Source: Escherichia coli
GTDB taxonomy: Bacteria; Pseudomonadota; Gammaproteobacteria; Enterobacterales; Enterobacteriaceae
NCBI RefSeq assembly: GCF_003334815.1
Contig: NZ_QOWO01000001.1
Length of the DNA: 64,000 nucleotides
Reading direction: 5' to 3' (one strand)
Below are positions 10,582 to 57,721 of this stretch, piece after piece. How positions within the stretch are numbered: the stretch's first letter is position 1; every line of letters begins with the position of its first letter. The translations under genes were made by a program, and so were the position numbers. Below the pieces are notes generated by a model. The model had not been told where the DNA came from, ran no database searches, and saw only the letters and a program-made list of their open reading frames with translations.

Positions 10582-11373
10582 TTATTTCTTTTTGTTGGTG
10601 GTCTGACCGAAAGCGTGCCAGGTAGCAGAGACGCTGTTGAGATGCGATTGCAACGCACGATCGGCTTCGTCAGGATCATGACGGCGGATCGCATCAACGA
10701 TCGCAATATGCTGTTGATAACTAACGTTGTTATGTTCGTGCAGTGCCTGATCGGTAACCGTTGGGCGTGCGGCAATAAGCCAGTCGAGCAGGGCAACGTG
10801 GATCGCCATGAAGATTGGGTTACCGGGGATCTCCGCCAGCACGCGGTGGAAATCAACGTCTGAACGAATGAATGCCGCGTTGTTATCCAGCGACTGACTG
10901 TTGATTTCCAGTGCTTTTGCCAGCAAATCGATTTGCTCATCGGTGGCATGTTCAGCCGCATAGCGCACCAGACTGGATTCAAAGAACAGACGTAATTGTT
11001 CGAAATGGGCAATCCCACCGGGATGAGAAAGGAAATCTTTCGCCATGCCGGAAAGCTCACCGATGATAGTGTCCGCAGAAGGACGCGAGACGCGAGCGCG
11101 TTCGCCGTTGTTTATTTGCACCAGACCTTTGCGTTTTAACGCTGCCAGCGCTTCACGCACCGAAGGACGCCCGACGTTAAAGAACGCCATCAGTTCGCGT
11201 TCAGACGGTAATTGTTCACCTTCTCCAAATTCACGACGGCGGATCATCTGTTCCAGCTCTTCTTCCACCATTTCGGAGAGTTTTTTACGCGCCAGCGGGC
11301 GGCTACGCAAGTTGCGACCAATTGCAGGTGAAGAATCTTCGGTTTGCGAATCAAATGCGTTCATAAGGCCCAT
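10582..11373 (-). CDS. nanR: GntR/FadR-family repressor of the sialic acid regulon
   Basis: ORF track 263 aa; recognised NanR sequence. Confidence 0.9.
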
Positions 11374-11752
11374 TCTGTAAGGTCAGTGTGATTAACATCA
11401 TCAGTGACATCCTATCACAGGATTGAAAGTAGGGGAAAATGGCAGGGTTTTCTCTTTGTGCCTCATCATTACCATAATTAACGGAATAATTAACTATTGC
11501 GAAAAATTAATGTAACGCAGATAAAAACATCCCGTTTGAATTATTTATAAGACTATTCACGAGCATTATGAATATTATGAATGTGTTCTTACAAAATAAT
11601 CATAAGCGCATATTTTTTAATGAAAAATCACCTCACCTACAATTAAAAACACGACATCCGCACCATAAATAGCCTTGCAAAAAATATAACATCGTTGTTT
11701 TCAATCTGCCGTTTATGGGATTGACCGTTTTCTTTTGACACGGAGTTCAACA

Positions 11753-28956: not shown

Positions 28957-29190
28957 GCTGCCGGATGCGGCGTGAACGCCCTATCCAGCCTACGGTTATG
29001 TTCCGGTTTGTAGGCCTGATAAGACGCACAGCGTCGCATCAGGCAACGGCTGTCGGATGCGGCGTAAACGCCTTATCCGACCTACGGTTATGTTCCGTTT
29101 GTAGGCCTGATAAGACGCACAGCGTCGCATCAGGCAACGGCTGCCGGATGCGGCGTGAACGCCCTATCCGATCTACGGTTATGTTCTGGC
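28957..29190. repeat. REP/BIME array: three tandem copies of a ~78-bp unit built from REP palindromes
   Basis: gccggatgcggcgtgaacgccctatcc...tgtaggcctgataagacgcacagcgtcgcatcaggca repeated three times with point differences. Confidence 0.9.
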
Positions 29191-48054: not shown

Positions 48055-48351
48055 ATGTTCGAACAACGCGTAAATTCTGACGTACTGACCGTTTCTACCG
48101 TTAACTCTCAGGATCAGGTAACCCAAAAACCCCTGCGTGACTCGGTTAAACAGGCACTGAAGAACTATTTTGCTCAACTGAATGGTCAGGATGTGAATGA
48201 CCTCTATGAGCTGGTACTGGCTGAAGTAGAACAGCCCCTGTTGGACATGGTGATGCAATACACCCGTGGTAACCAGACCCGTGCTGCGCTGATGATGGGC
48301 ATCAACCGTGGTACGCTGCGTAAAAAATTGAAAAAATACGGCATGAACTAA
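48055..48351 (+). CDS. fis: Nucleoid-associated protein Fis
   Basis: ORF track 98 aa; exact Fis sequence ([15 protein letters not shown]...KKYGMN). Confidence 0.98.
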
Positions 48352-48363
48352 AGTCAAGCTGTA

Positions 48364-48373
48364 ACGGCATGAA
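48364..48373. repeat. Left copy of the 10-bp direct repeat ACGGCATGAA (candidate attL core)
   Basis: Exact match to 57684-57693; 13 bp after the fis stop. Confidence 0.55.
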
Positions 48374-48375
48374 AT

Positions 48376-48408
48376 TAAAGGGGCTATTTCAGCCCCTTTA
48401 CTTTTTGT
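48376..48408 (+). terminator. Rho-independent terminator serving fis; lies inside the island boundary
   Basis: aaaggggctatttcagcccctttactttttgtt, located between the left direct repeat and the tape-measure stop. Confidence 0.75.
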
Positions 48409-48428
48409 TGCAACCGTACTGACAACCC

Positions 48429-50702
48429 TTATGGTGTTTGCGCGCCATCTATCATCATGCTTCGCTGCCTTACTGCTTGTTGCTGTCGTAGTTGCTGTAT
48501 CACCTTCCGGGCTAATGCATCTTCATTCATACCAGGTTCTGCCTTCACGCTGATGTGGTACTGGTCGTTGCTATGCACCGTAGTGCCACCAGAGCGGTTG
48601 GCCAGTGCAGGTGACGGCAGGGCAGCACCAGAGGCAGTGGTTGCTGCTGGCTGCTGTACATCGTCGCGGAATGGTGCGGTAAAGAAATCTTTGGTTTTCT
48701 GCCACGCACCACCAGCAACATCAGACACGGCGTTTTTAAACTCCAGTGCCTTGTTGGTCAGGTTGCCAATGTTGTCAGAAACCCAAATGATCTTATCAAT
48801 CAGGAACGTGATCGGTGCGGTCACAAGCTCGATGCCAGCCGCCAGGGTCTTACCGAACGTCATCCCCATTTTACCGGCCTTATCCAGTTCCTCGCCGCTG
48901 TATTTGACCGGTTCGGTCAGTGACGTGAACCAGTTGAAAGCCGTCTTAACCGCAGCGCCCACGCCATCAATGACGGGCTTCAATGGCCCCATGCGCTCAT
49001 ACAGGCGATGCAGGGCATCGCTAAGCGGTTCCAGCCCGGATTTGATACCTTCACCCACGCCACCAAAAAAAGCCTTCACACCAGCCCAATGGCGGTAAAT
49101 CTGATAACCTGCCAGCGCCAGGCCAGCTACGGCAGCACCAACGCCAGTGGAAATGAACGCCGCACCGATGGCGCGCACGCCGGTAGCCACCGCAGGCAGG
49201 CCACGAGTGCTGGCCAGAACGGCGGATGCGTTCATGCGGGCAAACAGGCTGGACACGTTCAGCAATCCGCCTTTCAGGAACGTGAACGCAAAGCCAGCGG
49301 CGAACGTCGCCACACGCAGTGCCACCAGTGCACTGGAACCAATAACCACTGCTTTGGTCACGGTAGGGTATTCGCGCGCCAGTTCGGCAACCTTGCCGAT
49401 AACCGGGCCAACGGTAGCCAGAACGCCGTTGAATGCTGGCAGCAGCACTGTGCCGATCGTGACGCCCAGGTTAGACACACGGTTGTTGAAAATCTTAAGC
49501 TGCGCCGACGTTTTGGCGGTGGCTGCCTCATATTCAGCCTGCATAGAACCGGCATATTTGGTCTTGTCTTTGACCATATCCAGATTCTTTTGGTACGTAT
49601 CAAGCTGTGTCAGCATTGGTGCGATAGCGCCAATCGATTCCTTACCAAACAGTTGCGAAAGCGTTGCCGCCTGCATGTGTTTTGGCAGCTTGCTGATCTT
49701 GGACAGGATGACGCGGATTGTTTCATCGGCGTTCAGTTGCATTGATTTTGCAACCTGCTTGGATGTGAAGCCAAGCTGTTTAAACGCTTCACGCTGTGAC
49801 TTCGTGGCGGATGCGCCAGCGGTCAGGGATAGCAGCAGGTTTTTAATACCGGTGGCCGCAATCTCATTCTGCACGCCCATACCGCGCAGCGTTGCACCCA
49901 TCGCAGCGATAGAACCGGAAGCTGCACCAGCGACGCTGCCAAGTGGCCCGATGCGCTGCGTGATTTCCAGGATGTCTTTGGCTGATGCGGCGGTGTTGTT
50001 GCCCAGGTAGTTGATCTTGTCGGCCAGAACGTTCATCTGGTCCTGCGTCATCCCGAAGGCGGCGCGCATCTCTGCCATTGCCTGGCCTGCCTGGTCGGCG
50101 CTGACGTCAAAAGCCACACCCATTTTGATGGCCGATTCAGCAAACTTGGTTAGTTCGCTGGTGGCGATGCCTGATTGAGCACCAGCGGCAACAATCTTGC
50201 CGATTTCGTTGGCTGCCATCGGCATTTTGGTTGACATATCCTGGATAGCCTGGCCCATCTTAACCAGGCCGTCAGGGGTTTCGAAGTTGGCAACCTTGCG
50301 GATATCTGCCAGCGTATCTTCAAAATCCATAGCCTGTTTGATCGGTACAGCTACCGTTGCGCCAAGTGCGACAGTCCCCAGGATTCCTTCTTTGTAGCCT
50401 TGACGCTTCGCCAGGTTGCGTTCGCGGGCATCCTCCACGCGTTTCAGGCGTTCGGTGGCAGAACGAAGGCGTTCAACCTGCCCGACAACCGTTTGATAGC
50501 GGTCCTTCATGCGGGAGAATATCGCGCTATCCTGGCCATAACGCTTCATTGCTTCATTTAACTGGCGCTGTTCGCGCGACAGCTTAGAGATTGCGCTACC
50601 AATCTCGACGGTATTTTTCTTTACAGTTCCAAATGCACCACGAAGGCTGCCGGAAACGGCCCCACCAATCGTGATTGTTGCATTTAACTTCTTGTTGGCC
50701 AT
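48429..50702 (-). CDS. Phage tail tape measure protein (TP901-family core-like)
   Basis: ORF track 757 aa; N-terminal coiled coil, Ala/Gly-rich core (GNNTAASAKDILEITQRIGPLGSVAGAASGS...), hydrophobic C-terminal segments; called on recognised family features, not a search. Confidence 0.75.
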   Translation of the reverse strand: MANKKLNATITIGGAVSGSLRGAFGTVKKNTVEIGSAISKLSREQRQLNEAMKRYGQDSAIFSRMKDRYQTVVGQVERLRSATERLKRVEDARERNLAKRQGYKEGILGTVALGATVAVPIKQAMDFEDTLADIRKVANFETPDGLVKMGQAIQDMSTKMPMAANEIGKIVAAGAQSGIATSELTKFAESAIKMGVAFDVSADQAGQAMAEMRAAFGMTQDQMNVLADKINYLGNNTAASAKDILEITQRIGPLGSVAGAASGSIAAMGATLRGMGVQNEIAATGIKNLLLSLTAGASATKSQREAFKQLGFTSKQVAKSMQLNADETIRVILSKISKLPKHMQAATLSQLFGKESIGAIAPMLTQLDTYQKNLDMVKDKTKYAGSMQAEYEAATAKTSAQLKIFNNRVSNLGVTIGTVLLPAFNGVLATVGPVIGKVAELAREYPTVTKAVVIGSSALVALRVATFAAGFAFTFLKGGLLNVSSLFARMNASAVLASTRGLPAVATGVRAIGAAFISTGVGAAVAGLALAGYQIYRHWAGVKAFFGGVGEGIKSGLEPLSDALHRLYERMGPLKPVIDGVGAAVKTAFNWFTSLTEPVKYSGEELDKAGKMGMTFGKTLAAGIELVTAPITFLIDKIIWVSDNIGNLTNKALEFKNAVSDVAGGAWQKTKDFFTAPFRDDVQQPAATTASGAALPSPALANRSGGTTVHSNDQYHISVKAEPGMNEDALARKVIQQLRQQQAVRQRSMMIDGAQTP

Positions 50703-50723
50703 AATAATTGTGCTCTCAAGGAA

Positions 50724-50930
50724 TTAATTAAGTAAATTTTCTGCAAGGGTGTGTTCACCGATTGCCCGCAAGGCGGCAGCGGCCAGTTGCAGGGCGCATT
50801 CGGTGCGGTAGTCTCGCTGTTTCTGCATTTCCTCCGCTGTGTTGCACGCCAGAACTTTTGGCAGGACCATATCCACCAGTTCAGGCCAGGGGTTTGTTCC
50901 TTCCGGTTTTGTGTGAATACGGTCCAGCAT
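50724..50930 (-). CDS. Small hypothetical protein immediately upstream of the tape measure gene (possible tail assembly chaperone)
   Basis: ORF track 68 aa; same strand and tight spacing within the operon; no recognisable motif. Confidence 0.4.
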   Translation of the reverse strand: MLDRIHTKPEGTNPWPELVDMVLPKVLACNTAEEMQKQRDYRTECALQLAAAALRAIGEHTLAENLLN

Positions 50931-50939
50931 GGTGCCCCC

Positions 50940-51257
50940 TTATGCACTCCGTACCAGGATAGCGCCGCGCTTCACCGCCTGGCGTTTGGCCCGTTCACCG
51001 GAACTGATGCGGCTGGATGGTTGCCACTTCGTGCGTCCCAGGGCGGATGCGTGGCTTTCCGCTTCGTCACGCATGATGCGGCCCGCTTCATCGGTCATGT
51101 GTTCGAATGCGTTTAAACGGTTGCGAAGGCTTGCCAGCAGGTCGGCTGCTTCGTAGCTGATAGGGTTTTTCTCTGAAATGGTTTGGAAACGCTTTGTTTC
51201 GCTAAGGATCAAACGCGCTTCTTCTTTCATTGATTCGTACAGGTCATGTTTTTTCAT
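50940..51257 (-). CDS. Hypothetical protein (possible tail assembly chaperone); start uncertain
   Basis: ORF track 149 aa (50940..51389); preferred start at the internal MKKHDLYESMKEE (ATG at 51257, ~104 aa) because the upstream extension is low-complexity. Confidence 0.4.
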   Translation of the reverse strand: MKKHDLYESMKEEARLILSETKRFQTISEKNPISYEAADLLASLRNRLNAFEHMTDEAGRIMRDEAESHASALGRTKWQPSSRISSGERAKRQAVKRGAILVRSA

Positions 51258-51471
51258 AGTATTGGCCGCTAACAATAGTTGTTGATGATTAAGTGAGTGC
51301 GCGCTTTTAGGTGACAGGTGCGGCGCAACCGGTGTGGAATTAGTGGTGGTTTTGACCGTCCAGGATGACCACCAACCTGGTTCCAGCATCCATCGTCTGA
51401 GGAACGATGAAGGTTAAATTTGGCCGGTTATTTGGGGCACAGGGAACCGGTGAAACCTGTATTCTTGGCCA

Positions 51472-51636
51472 TTATTTGCCGTTCAGCCCGCTACTCAGAA
51501 ACTTTTCAATCACCTGGCTGCGTGAAGGGCGGATGCCTGTTCTGCGTTCCAGTTTGGCTTGCTCTCTTTCGACCTGGCGCACCAGGTCAGGGGCGAGGCG
51601 TACCGTTACGTGCTGGCGTGTTTCTTGTCGTTTCAT
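51472..51636 (-). CDS. Ribbon-helix-helix (CopG/Arc-like) DNA-binding protein, 54 aa; absent from the ORF track (below length cutoff)
   Basis: Hand-translated: MKRQETRQHVTVRLAPDLVRQVEREQAKLERRTGIRPSRSQVIEKFLSSGLNGK; beta-strand then two helices typical of RHH; starts 3 nt after the upstream gene stop. Confidence 0.55.
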   Translation of the reverse strand: MKRQETRQHVTVRLAPDLVRQVEREQAKLERRTGIRPSRSQVIEKFLSSGLNGK

Positions 51637-51639
51637 GGC

Positions 51640-51960
51640 TTAGTACCTGTTCATCCAGCTTTCGCGCTTCTGTTTCGGGCGCTGCTCGCGGTAGTGACTG
51701 CGCACCAGGGAAGCGAGGTAATTCACGGCGCGTTCAATCTGGTACTGCTTAAGCTCCGGGTAAGCCTTGCGAATCCATTTTTCAGCAGCGTCATCGCTGT
51801 AGATGAATCCTGACCAGCCAACCGGCTGCACTACGATGCGCGGTGTGTTTTCATCACCGTGGCGCACATACATGGCCACACCTTCGATAGCTGCCAGGAT
51901 TTCACCCGGCAGGGCAGCGCGCTCCGCTGCCGCTTTTTTGCTGCCCCACCACATGATCAA
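51640..51960 (-). CDS. Hypothetical protein, ~105 aa, translationally coupled to the downstream RHH gene
   Basis: ORF track 106 aa; TTG or ATG start overlapping the stop of the upstream 294-aa gene. Confidence 0.45.
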   Translation of the reverse strand: MIMWWGSKKAAAERAALPGEILAAIEGVAMYVRHGDENTPRIVVQPVGWSGFIYSDDAAEKWIRKAYPELKQYQIERAVNYLASLVRSHYREQRPKQKRESWMNRY

Positions 51961-52841
51961 GCCTTCCAGAACATAGTTGAGTCAGGCACCAGTGCGGATG
52001 CGTTCACCCACACAACGATTTCAACGGCACCATTCAGCACGCGGCGGGCGGTGACGCGGATTTCATCATCCAGGGCAACGGCTGCATTGCCGAAAGCGCC
52101 AATGATTGTGCTGGAAGTCTGGCCGCTGATTTCAGCGCGTACACCGTAGGCACGCAGAACGCCGTCTTGCAGTTCCAGGCCGGTGCAATCACCGCCAACA
52201 ATGGCTTTAACTTCATCAAAGCGCAGGTTTTTGGCTGCAATCTTCTGCGCCACTGCGGTGAATGACGGGCTGGCCAGCGTTTCCGCTGCGGTTTCCAGGT
52301 GGTTCAGCAGTACGAAATCAGCCAGGTCAGCAATTCCGCGTTCAATGGCGGTGTTGACCACTTCCAGCGTGGTATCGTCTGCGAAGTCGTGTTTCATCTG
52401 CTTGCGGCTAAGGGTGTAGCCCACGCCGTAAGCCGGTGCGTTGTTGTGGTTGAACGCTGATACCAGGTAAGGCAGGCCGCTCATGGTGATTTCTTCGCCG
52501 TCAGCCACTTTGGCGAACGCACCAGGGCGAACGACAACGAAGCGGTCAGCCACTTCGCGGCCAGTCGTTGCGCCGGTGTTGCCAGTCGGAGGCGTGGTCA
52601 TCGGGCCAGGGATGCGGATGATTTCAGCGCCTGCCTGTGCCACCAGTGAACGTTCAGCCAGAACAGCGTTGAAGGTGGTCTGCTTGCCGCCTTTCGGGGT
52701 CAGCACGTCATTCATGGACAGGTAGCGAACTGCTGCAGGTTCCACAGGGATGAATTGAGTAATGTCACCGTTGCCATCAGTGCGAATGTGGCCGCCCTGG
52801 TGGTTCAACGCGTCGTTGATAAGTTGAGATAAAACGTTCAT
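51957..52841 (-). CDS. Phage structural-like protein, 294 aa (major tail- or capsid-like; unassigned)
   Basis: ORF track 322 aa; start moved to MNVLSQLINDAL (ATG at 52841), which has a GGAG RBS 8 nt upstream; first gene of the minus-strand operon ending in the tape measure. Confidence 0.4.
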   Translation of the reverse strand: MNVLSQLINDALNHQGGHIRTDGNGDITQFIPVEPAAVRYLSMNDVLTPKGGKQTTFNAVLAERSLVAQAGAEIIRIPGPMTTPPTGNTGATTGREVADRFVVVRPGAFAKVADGEEITMSGLPYLVSAFNHNNAPAYGVGYTLSRKQMKHDFADDTTLEVVNTAIERGIADLADFVLLNHLETAAETLASPSFTAVAQKIAAKNLRFDEVKAIVGGDCTGLELQDGVLRAYGVRAEISGQTSSTIIGAFGNAAVALDDEIRVTARRVLNGAVEIVVWVNASALVPDSTMFWKA

Positions 52842-53229
52842 TAAAAATGCTCCGGTTGTTGTGCAATAAATCGTCTGGAATGACTTAAAGATATACAGTA
52901 ACCAGGCCGAACACAATAGCCACAATGTGAGCTTTTTAATGTAAAATCAGTAACTTATAACCATGAATACTTGCAAATAACCAGGCATAATCCGGCGTAA
53001 TCGATATTTACACATCTTTACAATTCAGCGTGTGTAAAACGTGTTCGCTTTATTTTGCAATCTCGCAAGTATGGTTCCAGTGCTTTGATAGGATTCACAT
53101 AAATGATTGATTTACTTGACGTAATCATAAAGTGAGTTTTGTAGGGGCACGCACAACGCGAATTACGCGGGACCAATGCCCCCGCAGGCTGTACCCCCCT
53201 CGGAAGTACCTTGACTTTTTTGGCAGCAG

Positions 53230-53540
53230 ATGGCGATGACACCTAATGTCACCATGACGGCGTTATGTTGGAAAGGTGTCATTAGGTGTCATAGCGGGAA
53301 ACACGCTGATTATTAAAGAAAAATACAAACAAGATAATGTAATGAATGACACCTGTGACACCATGACACCCATTTCTATAAAGTATAACGACCACTGTTA
53401 CATTATCACAGTGGTCGTTATTTTCTTTAAAAATGCTGTCATAGGTGTCATAGGTGTCATTAGTAATGTCGCAACCCTTGCGGGTTATGGCTTGAGAACA
53501 ATGACACCTGCCATGACACCTTATAAATTAATGACACCTA
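53230..53540. repeat. Iteron array: at least 10 perfect copies of the octamer ATGACACC/GGTGTCAT in both orientations, with a central 9-bp-arm palindrome; probable replication origin
   Basis: Perfect copies start at 53236, 53275, 53285, 53346, 53363, 53444, 53453, 53501, 53513 and 53531; variants at 53246, 53355 and 53435; palindrome gaccactgt-N9-acagtggtc at 53390-53416; located 3' of the primase gene. Confidence 0.7.
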
Positions 53541-53607
53541 GGCGTCACTTTGAAAATAAAAAAAGCCCCGGCATTCGCCAGGGTAATGGGCAACAACTGT
53601 TGTGATG

Positions 53608-53832
53608 TTATGATCGGATGAACGGCAAGATTTCAGCGGAATCCACTACCCTTATGCGGTAGCTGCATAGCAGGTTTTCACCCAACTTGGCCAGTTCCTG
53701 CTGCACCTCTGGCAGCCTATTGCGAGCATGGTCTACCGCTTCCTGTTCAGTGGCGAAACCCTCCATAATTTCGGTTTCGGTGTAGGTGCCGTGTTCCGGG
53801 TCAAAAGCAATGATATATGCGCGATAACTCAT
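53608..53832 (-). CDS. Small hypothetical protein between the primase gene and the iteron origin
   Basis: ORF track 74 aa; GAGG RBS 6 nt upstream of the ATG. Confidence 0.5.
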   Translation of the reverse strand: MSYRAYIIAFDPEHGTYTETEIMEGFATEQEAVDHARNRLPEVQQELAKLGENLLCSYRIRVVDSAEILPFIRS

Positions 53833-53841
53833 AGTATTACC

Positions 53842-55530
53842 TCAAAACTGGTGGTTAGGCCCATCAAAATAGCGATGGTCTTGCTGTCCAAAAACTTTCG
53901 GTGGCATTAGGTAAAAACGCCCTTTACTTGTTCTACGTGCATCCCTTCCTGTCAGTTTTCGCAGAATGTTACCGCACTGCGTTGCCTGGGATTTTGTTGG
54001 CCGATCCTGCCCAATAGACAACAGAACATCCGTTGCAGTCATTTCTATATATGCAGCCAGGCGATCACTGTTCCAATCAAAACGCGCCAATATCATTTCT
54101 TCAATCGGGTCAGTTTGCCCGTGCTGTTCGTTCACGACTTCCAGCATGGCTTCTTCATCACGGTCCAGCCACCAGCGTTCACCTGCTTCAAACCAGGAAA
54201 GAACTTCGGCCCATAATTGTTGTGTGTCTATGCCATGCTCGTAGTTAACGGCAGTTACAGGAATGGTCCACCAGCGCACGTTCCCGGTGTCATCCGCCAG
54301 GAAGTGTTTCGGGTTCACTGACGCAAAAAACACGGTGCGGCGCTGGTACTTCGATTCAAGCCGGTCATAAGGGCGGCGCAGGTCATCACGGTCCTGGCTG
54401 ATAAATGCTTTGAGCTTGGCAATATCCGCCTTGCGAAACGTCGCATCCAATTCGCCTAGCTCAACAAGCCAGTGACTAATTGCGCTGGCCACGCTGTCTT
54501 TATTGCCGGGGTCAATAGTTGCTCCCACCTTAACCAGGTTGCGATTGTCAGGGGGCAGAAGCGCTTTAAACCATGCTGTTTTACCCAGTGACTGCTCGCC
54601 CTGGAAAACCAGCACGCCTTTGGACCAGAAACCCGCTTCTAAGTAAGCAGCCGCCACGGCAGACAGCAACCAACGACGCACCAGCATGGCCAGCAGATCG
54701 CGACTGTAGTCATCTGGCGTGCTGATAGTATTCAGCAGGTCTGCAAATCGGCTTCGTCCATCCCATTCACGTTGATTGATGAAATCCCTGACAGGATTAT
54801 AAGTATTGCGCACAGCGATAGTTTTGATATGACCTTCAATATTACTCATTGGTAACCGGTTCAGTGCGGCGAGGCTTAAAATTTCACTCACAGCGCAGTT
54901 ATCGCGAGCATCTGAACCGCCACTAACGCCAGGTACTAAAACCTCAACGTCCTTGCTAATCTCATTATATTTTGCAGAAATGCTGTAGTTATCTAATAGA
55001 CGTTCAACATTAGGGCGTGTGTTTAAAGGCTGGCCATTGCTTCCAATATTTGGCCAGGTTGTCATTAATACAGGAGCCATATCGTGAATGTCTTTTACAG
55101 TTGCTGCGGCGGTTGCTCGTTCTTCTTTGCGCAGCATGCCCACCAGGCTTTCACCGCGTAGGGCGGCGTCTCTAAGCCTGTCCATGTTCCATTTTTCCGG
55201 TTCACGGTCAGTAATGCCTTTAAATAAACGGGCTTCCTTAACTCCAGCCACTGCCAGCTTGTCAGCAATAGTGCTGATTTGAAGTTGCTTAATATCACCA
55301 GCCAGATATACCCGCGCAGACCGGCGACCATCGTCGATAATTCGTAGATTATCTAAATCATCCAGTTGTCTTGGCCCAAGGTAGACAGGAGGAGTAGTGT
55401 CACCGGCAACTTGTTTACCCATTCCTTCTTCCCAGCCCTTGGCATGGCTCCAAGCGTCAGAACCGGCAAAAATAATTGCTTCCGTAAAAGGGTCTTTAGG
55501 TAATAGCTTAACGTTAGGCGCGTTTCTCAT
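53842..55530 (-). CDS. Satellite-type primase / replication initiator with P-loop NTPase domain
   Basis: ORF track 562 aa; Walker A motif GEQSLGKTAW; sits between alpA and the iterons as in P4 alpha / PICI pri-rep arrangements. Confidence 0.65.
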   Translation of the reverse strand: MRNAPNVKLLPKDPFTEAIIFAGSDAWSHAKGWEEGMGKQVAGDTTPPVYLGPRQLDDLDNLRIIDDGRRSARVYLAGDIKQLQISTIADKLAVAGVKEARLFKGITDREPEKWNMDRLRDAALRGESLVGMLRKEERATAAATVKDIHDMAPVLMTTWPNIGSNGQPLNTRPNVERLLDNYSISAKYNEISKDVEVLVPGVSGGSDARDNCAVSEILSLAALNRLPMSNIEGHIKTIAVRNTYNPVRDFINQREWDGRSRFADLLNTISTPDDYSRDLLAMLVRRWLLSAVAAAYLEAGFWSKGVLVFQGEQSLGKTAWFKALLPPDNRNLVKVGATIDPGNKDSVASAISHWLVELGELDATFRKADIAKLKAFISQDRDDLRRPYDRLESKYQRRTVFFASVNPKHFLADDTGNVRWWTIPVTAVNYEHGIDTQQLWAEVLSWFEAGERWWLDRDEEAMLEVVNEQHGQTDPIEEMILARFDWNSDRLAAYIEMTATDVLLSIGQDRPTKSQATQCGNILRKLTGRDARRTSKGRFYLMPPKVFGQQDHRYFDGPNHQF

Positions 55531-55795
55531 ATCGCACCCCGCGTTTTAACTCCAGATACATCGCCCATGATTCAGAATCGCTGATGCGAAACGGCACCAG
55601 GCTATCAGCCATAGCGGCGTGACGTGAAACAATAGTCCACGGGCGGTTTACACCTTCGCGAATGCATGCTTGCAACAATAATTGTGCTGCCGCCATACGC
55701 TGGGCGGTAAGTTCGCCAACGGTTAACTGGCGCTGTGGGTTACGCAACAGGCTGTTATAGCGACTGATAGCCTGATTTACGGTTGTTTTCTTCAT
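55514..55795 (-). CDS. Small hypothetical protein directly upstream of the primase gene, overlapping its start
   Basis: ORF track 93 aa; GAGGTGG RBS; 17-nt overlap with the primase start. Confidence 0.5.
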   Translation of the reverse strand: MKKTTVNQAISRYNSLLRNPQRQLTVGELTAQRMAAAQLLLQACIREGVNRPWTIVSRHAAMADSLVPFRISDSESWAMYLELKRGVRYEKRA

Positions 55796-55803
55796 AAGCC
55801 ACC

Positions 55804-55983
55804 TCAGCGCTGTACTGGCTGGCGGCTTTCAAGCCACGCCATAACATCTTTGCGCCGCCAGGCCACGCGTTTTGGCCCTAATTTTATGCAATTAGGAAAC
55901 GTGCCAGCCTGGATATAGCGCCAGATAGTCATGCGGGATAATGTTGTTAGTGTTGTGACTTGCTTAGCAGTCAGTAATTCCAT
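55804..55983 (-). CDS. alpA: AlpA-family phage transcriptional regulator (MerR-like HTH), 59 aa; absent from the ORF track (below length cutoff)
   Basis: Hand-translated: MELLTAKQVTTLTTLSRMTIWRYIQAGTFPNCIKLGPKRVAWRRKDVMAWLESRQPVQR; classic AlpA signature; GAGGG RBS. Confidence 0.7.
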   Translation of the reverse strand: MELLTAKQVTTLTTLSRMTIWRYIQAGTFPNCIKLGPKRVAWRRKDVMAWLESRQPVQR

Positions 55984-56277
55984 CTTACGGCCCTCAAAAC
56001 ATGGCCGGTGGATATGTGGTCTGTAATGATTTATGATTATGTTGCGTTAACAAAGAACGCGACCATTACAGCCTTCACCGGCTTTTTGGTATTAAGGGGT
56101 TCGGTTTTCTGTTTGGCGACGTGAACCGATCCCCGCCTTATTCAAGCCCTCAGTTCTGCTGGGGGCTTTTTATTACTACATGACAATAATACTCAAATTG
56201 TATCAGCAGTAAATACCCTTTAAATTCATAAACTTAACTGCAAATAACGCTACATAACTCTATATAATCATCAATTT

Positions 56278-57513
56278 TTAATTATCTGATTTTAAAAGGT
56301 TTATTTTTTCTAAATATTTTATCCATTTGTCCAAGGCTAACCGTTTTTCCGGGATGTACTGGCTACGGTTGTACACCGCCATCACTCCTGGCATTGAGTG
56401 GCCCAGCAACTGTTCAACCACATGCGGGGCTATCCCCAAGTTATTTAGACTGGTGGCAAAAGTGCGGCGCAGGTCATGCAACGTCCACGGCGTTGAATGC
56501 TCTAATCGTCTGTATAAGATACGCCCCCACTGGCTGACAGCTTCGGGTTTCTTCATTTCACCAAGCAGCATTCCGCTATCAAGATGATTTTGGCGTAGCT
56601 GTAAAATAAATGGCTGTATAGATTCAGGCACGGGTCTGATGATTTTCTCCCCACCCTTGCTATGTTCTCGCGGAACTGTCCAAATCCATTCTTTCACGTT
56701 CCATTCCGACCATGTCGAAAGACGAATTTCTTGTGTTCTTGCACCAAACACTATTAGCAATTTTAAAAGCGCGGTGTAGTAAGGTAGAAACGCATATTCG
56801 CTTTTTAGCGCATTCCAAAGGCCACTAAGTTCTTCAGAAGTTAAAACACGATCACGTTTTGCCTGCTTTCTTCCAACATCAGTAACTTTGATATCCTCCA
56901 GCGCATCACTGTAAACATCGTGCAGCCTGCGGTTGTGAATCAACGCCTGCTTGCAGTTACCTAATATGTAGCCGCTTGCTACCGGCGCGACTTTTTTGAT
57001 TCTGCTAAATGTCTCCATCCATCTTGCTTTAGAGCACTGTTCAAGTGGCAATTCGCCGATGAAAGGATAAATATGTCTTTCGAATTGGCGTCTATGCCTT
57101 TCAAAGTTGACCCGGTTTTCCGCCGCGTACTCATTAATCCAGCGTTCCAATGCTTCCCTGATAGTGACAGGTTTCATGGTTTTTGCTGACTCTTGGTCAA
57201 ACTGGTCTTTAGGATCTAGATTATGAGCAAGCCACCGTTTGCATTGGTCGCGTTTCACCCTCGCCTCAGCAAGAGATAAGGCAGGATACTTGCCCAGCAC
57301 TAGCGTCAAAGTATTGGCGCTTTTATGCTTATTCTTATAACGGAACAACCATTGGATGTTATTGGCCGGTCTCTTCTCGCCATCAAGGATTTTGCGCCTT
57401 GATGGTGTAACGCGAACAGAAAGGCTGCCACCGTCAGCAACATCAAAAGGTTTTTCGATGACTTTGCGGGTTAACGCACGCAATTGAACATCTGAGAGTT
57501 TATTTTCGGCCAT
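56278..57513 (-). CDS. int: Tyrosine recombinase, P4-type integrase family
   Basis: ORF track 435 aa; start taken at MAENKLSDVQLRAL (ATG at 57513, 411 aa); P4-integrase-like N-terminus (DGGSLSVRVTPSRRK) and C-terminal catalytic motifs (HDLRRTF...LGHS...VYNR...Y). Confidence 0.85.
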   Translation of the reverse strand: MAENKLSDVQLRALTRKVIEKPFDVADGGSLSVRVTPSRRKILDGEKRPANNIQWLFRYKNKHKSANTLTLVLGKYPALSLAEARVKRDQCKRWLAHNLDPKDQFDQESAKTMKPVTIREALERWINEYAAENRVNFERHRRQFERHIYPFIGELPLEQCSKARWMETFSRIKKVAPVASGYILGNCKQALIHNRRLHDVYSDALEDIKVTDVGRKQAKRDRVLTSEELSGLWNALKSEYAFLPYYTALLKLLIVFGARTQEIRLSTWSEWNVKEWIWTVPREHSKGGEKIIRPVPESIQPFILQLRQNHLDSGMLLGEMKKPEAVSQWGRILYRRLEHSTPWTLHDLRRTFATSLNNLGIAPHVVEQLLGHSMPGVMAVYNRSQYIPEKRLALDKWIKYLEKINLLKSDN

Positions 57514-57683
57514 AGAGTTAATGACAACCTTTTTGACAACTGTATGCAGGGAGTAACTGATAACTGATGATACAATGCGAGCCAATAAAAAATAAATATC
57601 TCTTTCCGCATCAATTATTTATGATGAATACAAATTATCTAGAGTGATAATAAATTACGTATAATGACTCTGTATTTTACAAT

Positions 57684-57693
57684 ACGGCATGAA
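57684..57693. repeat. Right copy of the 10-bp direct repeat ACGGCATGAA (candidate attR core)
   Basis: Exact match to 48364-48373; ~170 bp beyond the integrase start. Confidence 0.55.
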
Positions 57694-57721
57694 CTAATTC
57701 AGGTTAGCTAAATGCTTGATT

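Follow-up and report, generated by a model that had tools for sequence, protein, structure and literature searches.

The 64,000-nt stretch of an Escherichia coli chromosome analysed here (contig NZ_QOWO01000001.1, hereafter the window) carries an island of about 9.3 kb (approximately 48352-57697), and this report deals with two gaps between the genes of that island: gap 1, between the integrase gene int and the regulatory gene alpA, and gap 2, between the late operon and the replication origin. The best explanation of their content is probably that the island is a satellite resembling the phage-inducible chromosomal islands (PICIs), with a helper phage of the Jilinvirus type, and that its control and packaging are centred on the two gaps. 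Gap 1 contains a predicted antisense RNA gene whose promoter faces the predicted promoter of alpA. Gap 2 contains a block that matches the cos site of Jilinvirus phages, next to an exchangeable cassette that may control the late operon. All evidence is computational (sequence analysis, predicted folds and predicted structures).

Gap 1 measures 294 bp (55984-56277) and extends from the start of alpA (55983) to the stop codon of int (56278). Gap 2 measures 388 bp and extends from the start codon of the late operon (52841) to the first repeat (iteron) of the origin (53236). The original prediction held that both are non-coding and are the likely control regions of the island. The first point is borne out: RefSeq annotation has no feature under either gap in the 47 island-bearing E. 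coli genomes, and the open reading frames (ORFs) inside the gaps are short (15-52 codons), with mostly non-ATG starts. Gap 1 is furthermore regarded as non-coding because the insertions and deletions among its homologues would disrupt any reading frame. The second point is partly supported. Each gap has a conserved promoter-like element and the two share an array of RTTAY units, but nearly half of gap 1 is taken up by the predicted antisense RNA gene and the right quarter of gap 2 by cos, so that the gaps are more than promoter regions. The coordinates of all features are summarized in Table 1.

Predicted antisense RNA gene and alpA promoter in gap 1

The 140-nt antisense segment of gap 1 has a minimum free energy of -52.6 kcal/mol (z -4.65 to -5.2 relative to dinucleotide-shuffled sequences) and folds into four hairpins, H1 to H4. 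Independent folding of eight relatives gave the same four hairpins, with -50 to -55 kcal/mol. The covariance model built from these eight relatives (R1) matched 12 distinct loci from several enterobacteria with scores of 62-140 bits, every one of them located between int and alpA and antisense to the latter; one of these loci (L028) has another primase (PriCT_2), other cargo and another chromosomal site. Regarding the alignment of the 12 sequences, 87.6% of the cells are paired, as compared with 34-56% when the partners are slid by 1-3 columns, double-sided changes occur at 12 pairs versus 1-4 in the slid controls, and the covariation score was reached by none of 500 shuffles, although these covariation statistics are inflated by an alignment that was fitted to the model and by sequences that are few, related and mosaic. 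Within E. coli, gap 1 is at least 99% identical in 43 genomes and 71% identical in four. That a conserved structured element exists in gap 1 can be stated with high confidence.

The RNA is assigned to the plus strand because of the excess of G-U pairs, which are valid on that strand only (48, versus 17 A-C), the greater stability of the antisense strand, and the U run after the terminator, which is found on that strand only. The antisense strand folds more stably than the sense strand in six of six homologues (e.g., -52.6 vs. -43.1 and -58.8 vs. -47.8 kcal/mol), with z values of -3.5 to -5.2 as compared with -2.0 to -3.6. The strongest alternative, which we nevertheless consider unlikely, is that there is no antisense gene, H4 being the terminator of int and H1-H3 being structures of the 5' untranslated region of alpA on the sense strand, for example for the control of mRNA stability or translation. 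Every hairpin can be formed on the sense strand as well, which also beats its shuffles and in which 80% of the cells still pair (327 Watson-Crick and 17 A-C of 428); moreover, int requires some terminator, and long structured leaders are common ahead of master regulators. However, the T run of H4 is present on the plus strand only in all relatives, the sense strand having 2-3 U followed by purines, and in three loci that lack H4 (L014, L029 and L030) H3 runs directly into a U run on the same plus strand. The G-U excess and the consistently greater antisense stability also speak against this alternative, as does a -35/-10 pair on the plus strand, 5-7 nt before H1.

The -10 hexamer of this promoter, P_as, takes five near-consensus forms in the 12 homologues (TATGAT, TAGAAT, TAAAAT, TATAGT and TACAAT) at a constant distance to H1, which is expected if selection acts on promoter function and not on sequence. 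The sequence of the terminator stem varies among relatives, with retention of the pairing and of the plus-strand T run. P_as and the terminator stem are 107 bp apart on the plus strand, and the terminator ends 14 bp before the predicted alpA transcription start. The segment appears to have what characterizes a cis-encoded antisense RNA, i.e., a promoter of its own (consensus-based), an intrinsic terminator, and a strand-specific structure with compensatory changes. The gene is unannotated and without an Rfam family: neither gap yielded a family match at gathering or permissive thresholds, the best score in gap 1 being 18.6 bits against a gathering threshold of 49.5.

Besides the inflated statistics and the ability of both DNA strands to form the hairpins, other observations weigh against a regulatory antisense RNA. 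The RNA stops about 49 nt short of the alpA Shine-Dalgarno sequence. Occlusion of that sequence upon binding of the RNA was considered and rejected: in constrained folding of nine leaders, the hairpin was equal with and without bound RNA. The int-alpA gap of EcCICFT073, a Gram-negative PICI (Fillol-Salom et al. 2018, PMC6092414), contains no homologue of the RNA, which therefore belongs to one int-alpA lineage and is not a general feature of PICIs. An island with a 54%-identical integrase (L022) gave no match either. On the whole, a regulatory role of the predicted RNA is somewhat favoured. A weak R1 match (17.6 bits) was observed deeper in EcCICFT073, between YlcI-like and Icd-like genes (E. 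coli CFT073, L032; the stretches concerned are 11161-11525 and 12740-12873).

The best-conserved part of gap 1 consists of the -10 block of the predicted alpA promoter, P_alpA, and of the 45 bp that precede its -35 element. The -10 block, GA[TA]AC[AG]A[TG], is kept in eight diverged relatives, and the upstream array of phased 10-bp units is conserved within AlpA allele group 1. Between int and P_alpA there is no terminator on the sense strand. The Shine-Dalgarno sequence of alpA, GAGGG (about 55991-55995), lies within a small conserved hairpin. The promoter assignments in both gaps are predictions that we hold to have even prospects of being correct.

Just two copies of the pattern RTTAY-N5-RTTAY-N5-RTTAY are present in the window (0.00 expected), both on the coding strand, one in gap 1 (56244-56268) and the other in gap 2 (52977-53001). 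An operator-like array is thus common to both gaps and, within the window, confined to them. AlpA itself is the prime candidate for its binding, by likeness to EcCICFT073. The AlpA alleles fall into two groups with about 65% identity, and the operator type at P_alpA switches in parallel; the array of gap 2, however, occurs with both allele groups, which weakens the case for AlpA. The stronger statement that AlpA is the proven binder of RTTAY was dropped, as it is not cleanly supported by the distribution of the gap 2 arrays.

The cos block and the proposed late-control cassette of gap 2

In a comparison of gap 2 with 50,697 phage genomes, the only matches covered 73-80 bp (53148-53227); identity was 94-98.6% for the Jilinvirus myophages ECO1230-10, ep3, HeidiAbel_Bas97 and PT1, with weaker matches to ECOO78, Alux-21, Arya and Serratia phage MQ-4. 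The phage counterpart of the block is non-coding and is flanked by the Rz/spanin gene on one side and by terS on the other. An identical 13-nt sequence, GGACCAATGCCCC (53170-53182), stands at both ends of the linear ECOO78 record, and the Arya record starts at the equivalent of 53186; therefore, the phage genome ends in the middle of the shared block. Among the E. coli variants of the island only 53122-53229 of gap 2 is conserved, whereas the other 280 bp are replaced in more than half. Relatives from other genera have the same cos architecture and keep the TGCGGGG core, with flanks like those of other Jilinvirus-like phages; the left cos half of one of them (L019) resembles that of Arya. RNA structure was not apparent in the block (folding of 53125-53235 gave z values of +0.2 and +0.8 for the two strands). 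Homology of the block to the cos site of Jilinvirus phages is strongly indicated. As it coincides with the ends of the helper genome records and, in the helper, adjoins terS, it would represent the packaging signal that Gram-negative PICIs take from their helpers.

It is quite unlikely that the block has no packaging function and represents a scar left by recombination or a mimic of regulatory DNA (a site for a late factor of the helper, or one for interference mediated by terminase). The segment shared by phage and island is just 75-100 bp long, the upstream inverted CACGCAC...GCG arm copy and the terS-proximal part of the phage site are missing or diverged in the island, and a -10-like hexamer that phage and island have at an identical distance from this segment would allow the block to be part of a promoter. 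The size of the island is a further difficulty, also for its packaging as such: the helper genome, with 41 kb, is 4.4 times as large as this cos unit of 9.3 kb, and packaging would need small capsids or multimers. On the other hand, the shared block is centred on the ends of phage genome records, it is the sole invariant part of gap 2 across E. coli variants, relatives in other genera carry variants resembling the cos sites of other Jilinvirus-like phages, and carriage of a helper cos is an established route in P4 and in E. coli PICIs (PMC6092414).

Two island proteins match the same phages as does the cos block. Along its entire length, the tape-measure protein has 58-60% identity to its Jilinvirus counterparts, and residues 159-553 of the VapE-type primase-helicase share 65% identity with the C-terminal region of the primase of HeidiAbel. 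Because cos site, tape-measure protein and helicase domain all match Jilinvirus, the helper is considered Jilinvirus-like, not P2, and a Jilinvirus-type myophage is the likely helper. The original prediction had noted that the late-promoter element TGT-N12-ACA of the P2 Ogr/Delta scheme is missing from 52842-53229 and that the helper may not be P2-like. Both statements agree with the present results: the element is absent from the entire island (48352-57697), with 11 copies in the window as compared with 15.8 expected, and the island has no Ogr/Delta box. Jilinviruses are small (41-44 kb), little-studied myophages with virulent behaviour (PMC11990801). Their cos block was found in only 49 records among 5,426 E. 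coli genomes, about 47 of which are explained by the island; resident helper prophages are therefore rare, and induction would follow infection.

The remainder of gap 2 exists in two types. Type A is represented by an alignment of five diverged relatives (the window, L015, L018, L021 and L030), the conserved blocks of which are AATCAATCATTTA, TATCAA, AAAGCGAACAC, the RTTAY array, the ATTGTG direct repeats and TTGTGT-16/17-TAT..T. The last of these blocks is the candidate late promoter, P_late. Its position is conserved and its -10 element is TATAAT in L021 and TATTAT in L018, but it matches the consensus at only 7 of 12 positions, which speaks against a promoter. The left part of gap 2 yielded no site at the consensus-scan threshold of 9/12. 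Located about 40 nt ahead of the capsid gene, P_late is plausibly a weak, sigma-70-like promoter that would depend on an activator.

Type B, to which the majority of the E. coli islands and L017, L019, L020 and L029 belong, lacks the type A blocks. Instead, eight sister loci have the 18-mer GACAAACCCCAAGAAGAA 60-115 nt ahead of the capsid gene (e.g., L003 at 6217, L017 at 6216, L019 at 9550, L020 at 10787 and L029 at 14283). The same 18-mer occurs five times in the HeidiAbel genome (L008; 0.03 expected), always on the late strand (2426, 5165, 9467, 13923 and 39193) and before or inside late blocks, i.e., at the terL end, a head gene, the baseplate, the sheath and the junction between late activator and holin. 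There are no copies of it in this window, and no -10 element was found at a fixed distance from it. The helper encodes a late activator of 144 aa with a C-terminal helix-turn-helix (HTH; phrog_836; Bas97_0056), and GACAAACCCCAAGAAGAA is probably a recognition element of the late system of the helper. From the two types of cassette it follows that there are two alternative wirings of the late operon, and that the one in this island does not copy the helper motif.

The RTTAY triple is also present once per Jilinvirus genome (L008, 38818-38842; L005, 5134-5158; L007, 2263-2287), over the ribosome-binding site and start of the late activator. This could be chance or a point of cross-talk between satellite and helper.

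Island setting, cargo and distribution

The window belongs to the E. coli chromosome (gene run accC, panF, prmA, dusB, fis ... yhdJ, acrS), with the island inserted between fis (48055-48351) and yhdJ. All island genes are encoded on the minus strand, in the order int, alpA, a 93-aa ORF, the VapE-type primase-helicase, a 74-aa ORF, the origin, a gene of 294 codons, four small ORFs and the tape-measure gene. The neighbours of the gaps are those originally named, i.e., a tyrosine integrase, an AlpA/excisionase HTH protein, a VapE primase-helicase, an iteron origin and a tape-measure protein. The late genes had been named 'tape-measure operon', but the first gene of the operon encodes an HK97-fold major capsid protein according to its predicted structure. 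Integration took place in the last 17 bp of fis and regenerated the fis stop codon. The island end (48352-48428) brings a new hairpin terminator, AAAGGGGCTATTTCAGCCCCTTT, which is common to fis and the convergent tape-measure operon, and a third, partial copy of the att core, ACGGCATGAA, is located at 48364.

Table 1. Coordinates of the features of the island, with particular regard to gaps 1 and 2 (positions in the window).
Feature	Position	Strand	Remarks
attL	48335..48351	.	17-bp direct repeat AATACGGCATGAACTAA, identical to fis 3' end; recurs at 57681-57697
Tail tape-measure protein	48429..50702	-	757 aa; last late-operon gene; phrog_28, E=3e-129
HK97-fold major capsid protein (predicted structure)	51957..52841	-	294 aa; first late-operon gene; AlphaFold2 and Foldseek
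P_late candidate	52888..52916	-	TTGTGT-17-TATCTT; preceded by ATTGTG direct repeats (52929-52911)
Second RTTAY array	52950..53001	-	Units at 53001, 52991, 52981, 52961 and 52954; kept in type A relatives
Match to integration host factor (IHF) consensus	53100..53112	-	AATCAATCATTTA (WATCAANNNNTTR); adjacent to cos; retained in 7 of 10 relatives although the surroundings diverge
cos site, probably copied from Jilinvirus phages	53121..53221	.	Likely cleavage region 53170-53186 (GGACCAATGCCCCCGCA)
Replication origin	53233..53540	.	Four clusters of GGTGTCAY iterons (11 in all) that surround an AT-rich dyad
Early-operon terminator	53558..53583	-	Serves alpA, orf93, VapE and orf74
VapE-type primase-helicase	53842-55530	-	
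alpA	55804..55983	-	59-aa AlpA/excisionase-family HTH protein; phrog_66/2790; PF05930 on homologues
Predicted alpA leader	55984..56190	-	About 206 nt; approximately nt 15-147 complementary to antisense RNA
P_as (predicted)	56009..56037	+	TGGATA-17-TATGAT; convergent with P_alpA; consensus scan
Antisense RNA gene (predicted)	56040..56179	+	About 135 nt, with predicted ends near 56044 and 56176; antisense to alpA leader; folding, covariance model, covariation
Antisense RNA hairpins	H1 56042-56062, H2 56062-56090, H3 56096-56134, H4 56144-56174	+	H4 is the terminator
Intrinsic terminator of antisense RNA	56144..56176	+	11-bp stem 56144-56168, then T run TTTTTATT
P_alpA (predicted)	56224->56197	-	TTTAAA-16-TACAAT; TG upstream of -10; predicted start about 56190; consensus scan
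Operator-like array	56233..56269	-	Phased 10-bp units GATTAT/AGTTAT/CGTTAT/AGTTAA; just upstream of P_alpA -35
int, tyrosine integrase	56278..57513	-	P4-type with arm-binding domain; phrog_1, E=5e-53; PGAP start; Pfam domains on homologues
attR	57681..57697	.	Second copy of 17-bp repeat AATACGGCATGAACTAA

The 294-aa protein has no sequence match in Pfam, NCBIfam, PHROG or PDB. A profile search with it yielded 258 cluster representatives, and three long relatives have an N-terminal prohead protease domain fused to them. An AlphaFold2 model from only nine close sequences was unusable (predicted local distance difference test score, pLDDT, of 33), whereas the model from a 56-sequence alignment reached a pLDDT of 93.4, and Foldseek matched the latter to many HK97-fold capsid proteins at a probability of 1.00. 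Judging from this model, the protein is an HK97-fold major capsid protein. No genes for portal, protease, connector or terminase were found in the island, none of its proteins was recognised as an rpp-type protein of packaging redirection, and the small island proteins had no match in PHROG, NCBIfam, Pfam or PDB sequence searches. The tape-measure protein varies in length from 696 to 787 aa among relatives. According to a preprint of December 2025, tape-measure proteins in satellites are essentially unknown (10.64898/2025.12.02.691453).

Regarding the origin, 11 of the 19 GGTGTCAY copies in the window are found in 53236-53538, as compared with 3.5 expected for the entire window. The type of iteron varies in the family: it is GGTGTCAT here, CTCGCCACCAC in most others (L015 and L020 among the relatives compared) and GGACCCT in Klebsiella michiganensis, with the helicase domain still homologous. 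The helper's own origin has related GGTGAC/GGTCACC iterons. In sister genomes RefSeq lists a plus-strand 'hypothetical protein' over the iterons (53276-53605 in the window) that overlaps the origin repeats; this ORF is probably spurious.

Of 5,426 complete E. coli genomes, 47 (about 1%) carry the island, always at the fis-yhdJ site; island-bearing strains include UPEC85, SZQ1 and E62. The same fis-adjacent architecture is found in Cronobacter sakazakii, Salmonella enterica and K. michiganensis and in several contigs from metagenomes and read archives. Distant relatives were gathered via integrase homologues (56-88% identity) and a degenerate DNA pattern. Scans of the GTDB species representatives with the integrase and the RNA pattern both returned nothing, and those of metagenomes and IMG/VR contributed just a few extra loci. 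Unrelated to the island, two tandem matches to Rfam naRNA4 (a nucleoid-associated RNA derived from repetitive extragenic palindromes) are located at 29013-29173 on the minus strand of the window.

Proposed mechanism and comparison with known systems

From the elements, their conservation and the identity of cos, as found by sequence analysis, we infer the following scheme of transcription, repression, activation and cleavage. Gap 1 would be a convergent-promoter switch. P_alpA, with the operator-like array upstream, would produce a leader of about 206 nt followed by alpA, the master activator and excisionase, whereas P_as would fire the opposite way from within the leader and produce an RNA of about 135 nt with four hairpins. 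The antisense RNA, if made constitutively, together with colliding polymerases may cause leaky transcripts, or transcripts reading through from int, to yield no AlpA. A threshold would thus be set for the auto-activating AlpA loop until infection by the helper drives P_alpA hard. This threshold role is proposed because there is no sense terminator between int and P_alpA and because AlpA is auto-activating; the most likely routes of repression would be duplex-directed cleavage and transcriptional interference.

It is very improbable that the antisense RNA is real with a main target other than alpA (acting in trans on helper or host transcripts, or as an RNA of immunity or defence): the RNA does end 49 nt before the alpA Shine-Dalgarno sequence with no structural switch predicted, and the RNA-based immunity of P4 does hit targets away from its own gene, but neither the HeidiAbel genome nor other parts of the island showed complementarity to the RNA beyond 11-13 nt, the perfect 130-nt complementarity to the alpA leader is inherent, and the convergent-promoter geometry is retained in all relatives.

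Regarding gap 2, the cos copy next to the origin would enable the helper terminase to cut and package replicated island DNA. The other approximately 280 bp would serve as an exchangeable regulatory cassette for the operon from capsid to tape-measure gene. In this island the cassette would consist of an IHF-like site, the RTTAY array and a sigma-70-like promoter, which is weak and probably activator-dependent; in the sister islands it would use the late-gene 18-mer of the helper itself, GACAAACCCCAAGAAGAA.

The lysogenic state of P4 is under RNA-based control (CI RNA). The island resembles P4, the satellite of P2, in its P4-type integrase, its protein of the AlpA/Vis family, its primase-helicase with adjacent origin, its helper cos and, as predicted, its RNA-based control. 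However, the P4 CI RNA is processed from a sense leader and causes premature termination, whereas the island is predicted to have a separate convergent promoter and an antisense RNA. The TGT-N12-ACA late promoters of P4 and P2 are absent from the island, no PHROG matches to sid, psu or delta were found among its proteins, and its cos matches Jilinvirus-type phages only, not P2.

Convergent counter-transcript switches include IS10 RNA-OUT/RNA-IN, P22 sar, Anti-Q of pCF10 prgQ/prgX, and pR/pL of coliphage 186. Like the predicted arrangement in gap 1, they have face-to-face promoters about 150 bp apart and a short, structured, terminator-ended RNA that is antisense to the 5' part of the mRNA of a master regulator; their expected outcome is a threshold or bistable switch, as is proposed for the island. 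They have no sequence or Rfam relation to the island RNA. IS10 RNA-OUT covers a ribosome-binding site, which the island RNA does not, and pCF10 has a downstream attenuator, whereas folding revealed none in the leader of the island.

A lambda-type cos consists of cosQ, cosN and cosB with an IHF site. The island site is similar in that its helper counterpart lies just upstream of terS and in that it has a GC-rich cleavage core, protein-binding flanks and a terS-proximal IHF-consensus site; its sequence is unrelated to the cos of lambda or P2. The overhang length (13-17 nt) and polarity of the Jilinvirus-type cos are deduced from the ends of database records.

The closest architecture is that of the Gram-negative PICIs (PMC6092414), which likewise have the order int-alpA-primase/replicase-origin with all genes oriented alike, measure about 10 kb, occupy a fixed att site, carry the cos of their helper and use the small HTH protein AlpA as master regulator. 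With 9.3 kb and a 17-bp att site in the fis 3' end, the island agrees with their definition (about 10-15 kb, specific att site). In EcCICFT073, AlpA auto-activates its own promoter and the downstream genes, the helper induces alpA by an unknown factor, and a repressor has likewise not been described (PMC6092414). EcCICFT073 also has a phased 10-bp array between int and alpA, with five GAACAAC units right after int, but neither antisense RNA nor terminator in that gap. Antitermination by AlpA of Pseudomonas aeruginosa was rejected as a model, as that protein is larger, Q-like and unrelated to the 59-aa AlpA of the E. coli type (PMC9371919). The helper of the island differs from the lambda and phi80 helpers of Gram-negative PICIs, and unlike EcCICFT073 the island has its own capsid and tape-measure proteins and no recognised rpp-type gene.

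Whereas classical PICIs are defined by the lack of structural genes, this island encodes capsid and tape-measure proteins. A satellite-encoded HK97-fold major capsid protein is shared with the capsid-forming PICIs (cf-PICIs; bioRxiv 10.1101/2022.09.08.507074). These, however, have a complete capsid and packaging module, of which the island contains only the capsid protein, without portal, protease, connector or terminase; in turn, cf-PICIs are tail thieves and lack the tape-measure gene that is present here. A satellite with capsid and tape-measure proteins as its only structural genes fits no described class, and the operon under the control of gap 2 represents an unusual satellite cargo.

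Annotation pipelines leave both gaps blank. The identity of cos assigns a helper family, Jilinvirus, to an island of about 1% of the complete E. coli genomes that also occurs in Cronobacter, Salmonella and Klebsiella; a literature search revealed no paper that mentions Jilinvirus together with satellites. Regarding the silencing of PICIs, the founding paper knows no repressor, and the trigger of alpA is unknown (PMC6092414); the predicted counter-transcript is a testable candidate in one lineage. We tentatively suggest that the antisense RNA may be the missing 'repressor' in one Gram-negative PICI-like lineage, i.e., an RNA brake on the AlpA switch that would be overrun by the helper, and that the island family may be an undescribed class of satellites living on the mostly virulent Jilinvirus phages, with the cos of the helper, capsid and tape-measure proteins of its own, and swappable late cassettes (an RTTAY array or the late 18-mer of the helper).

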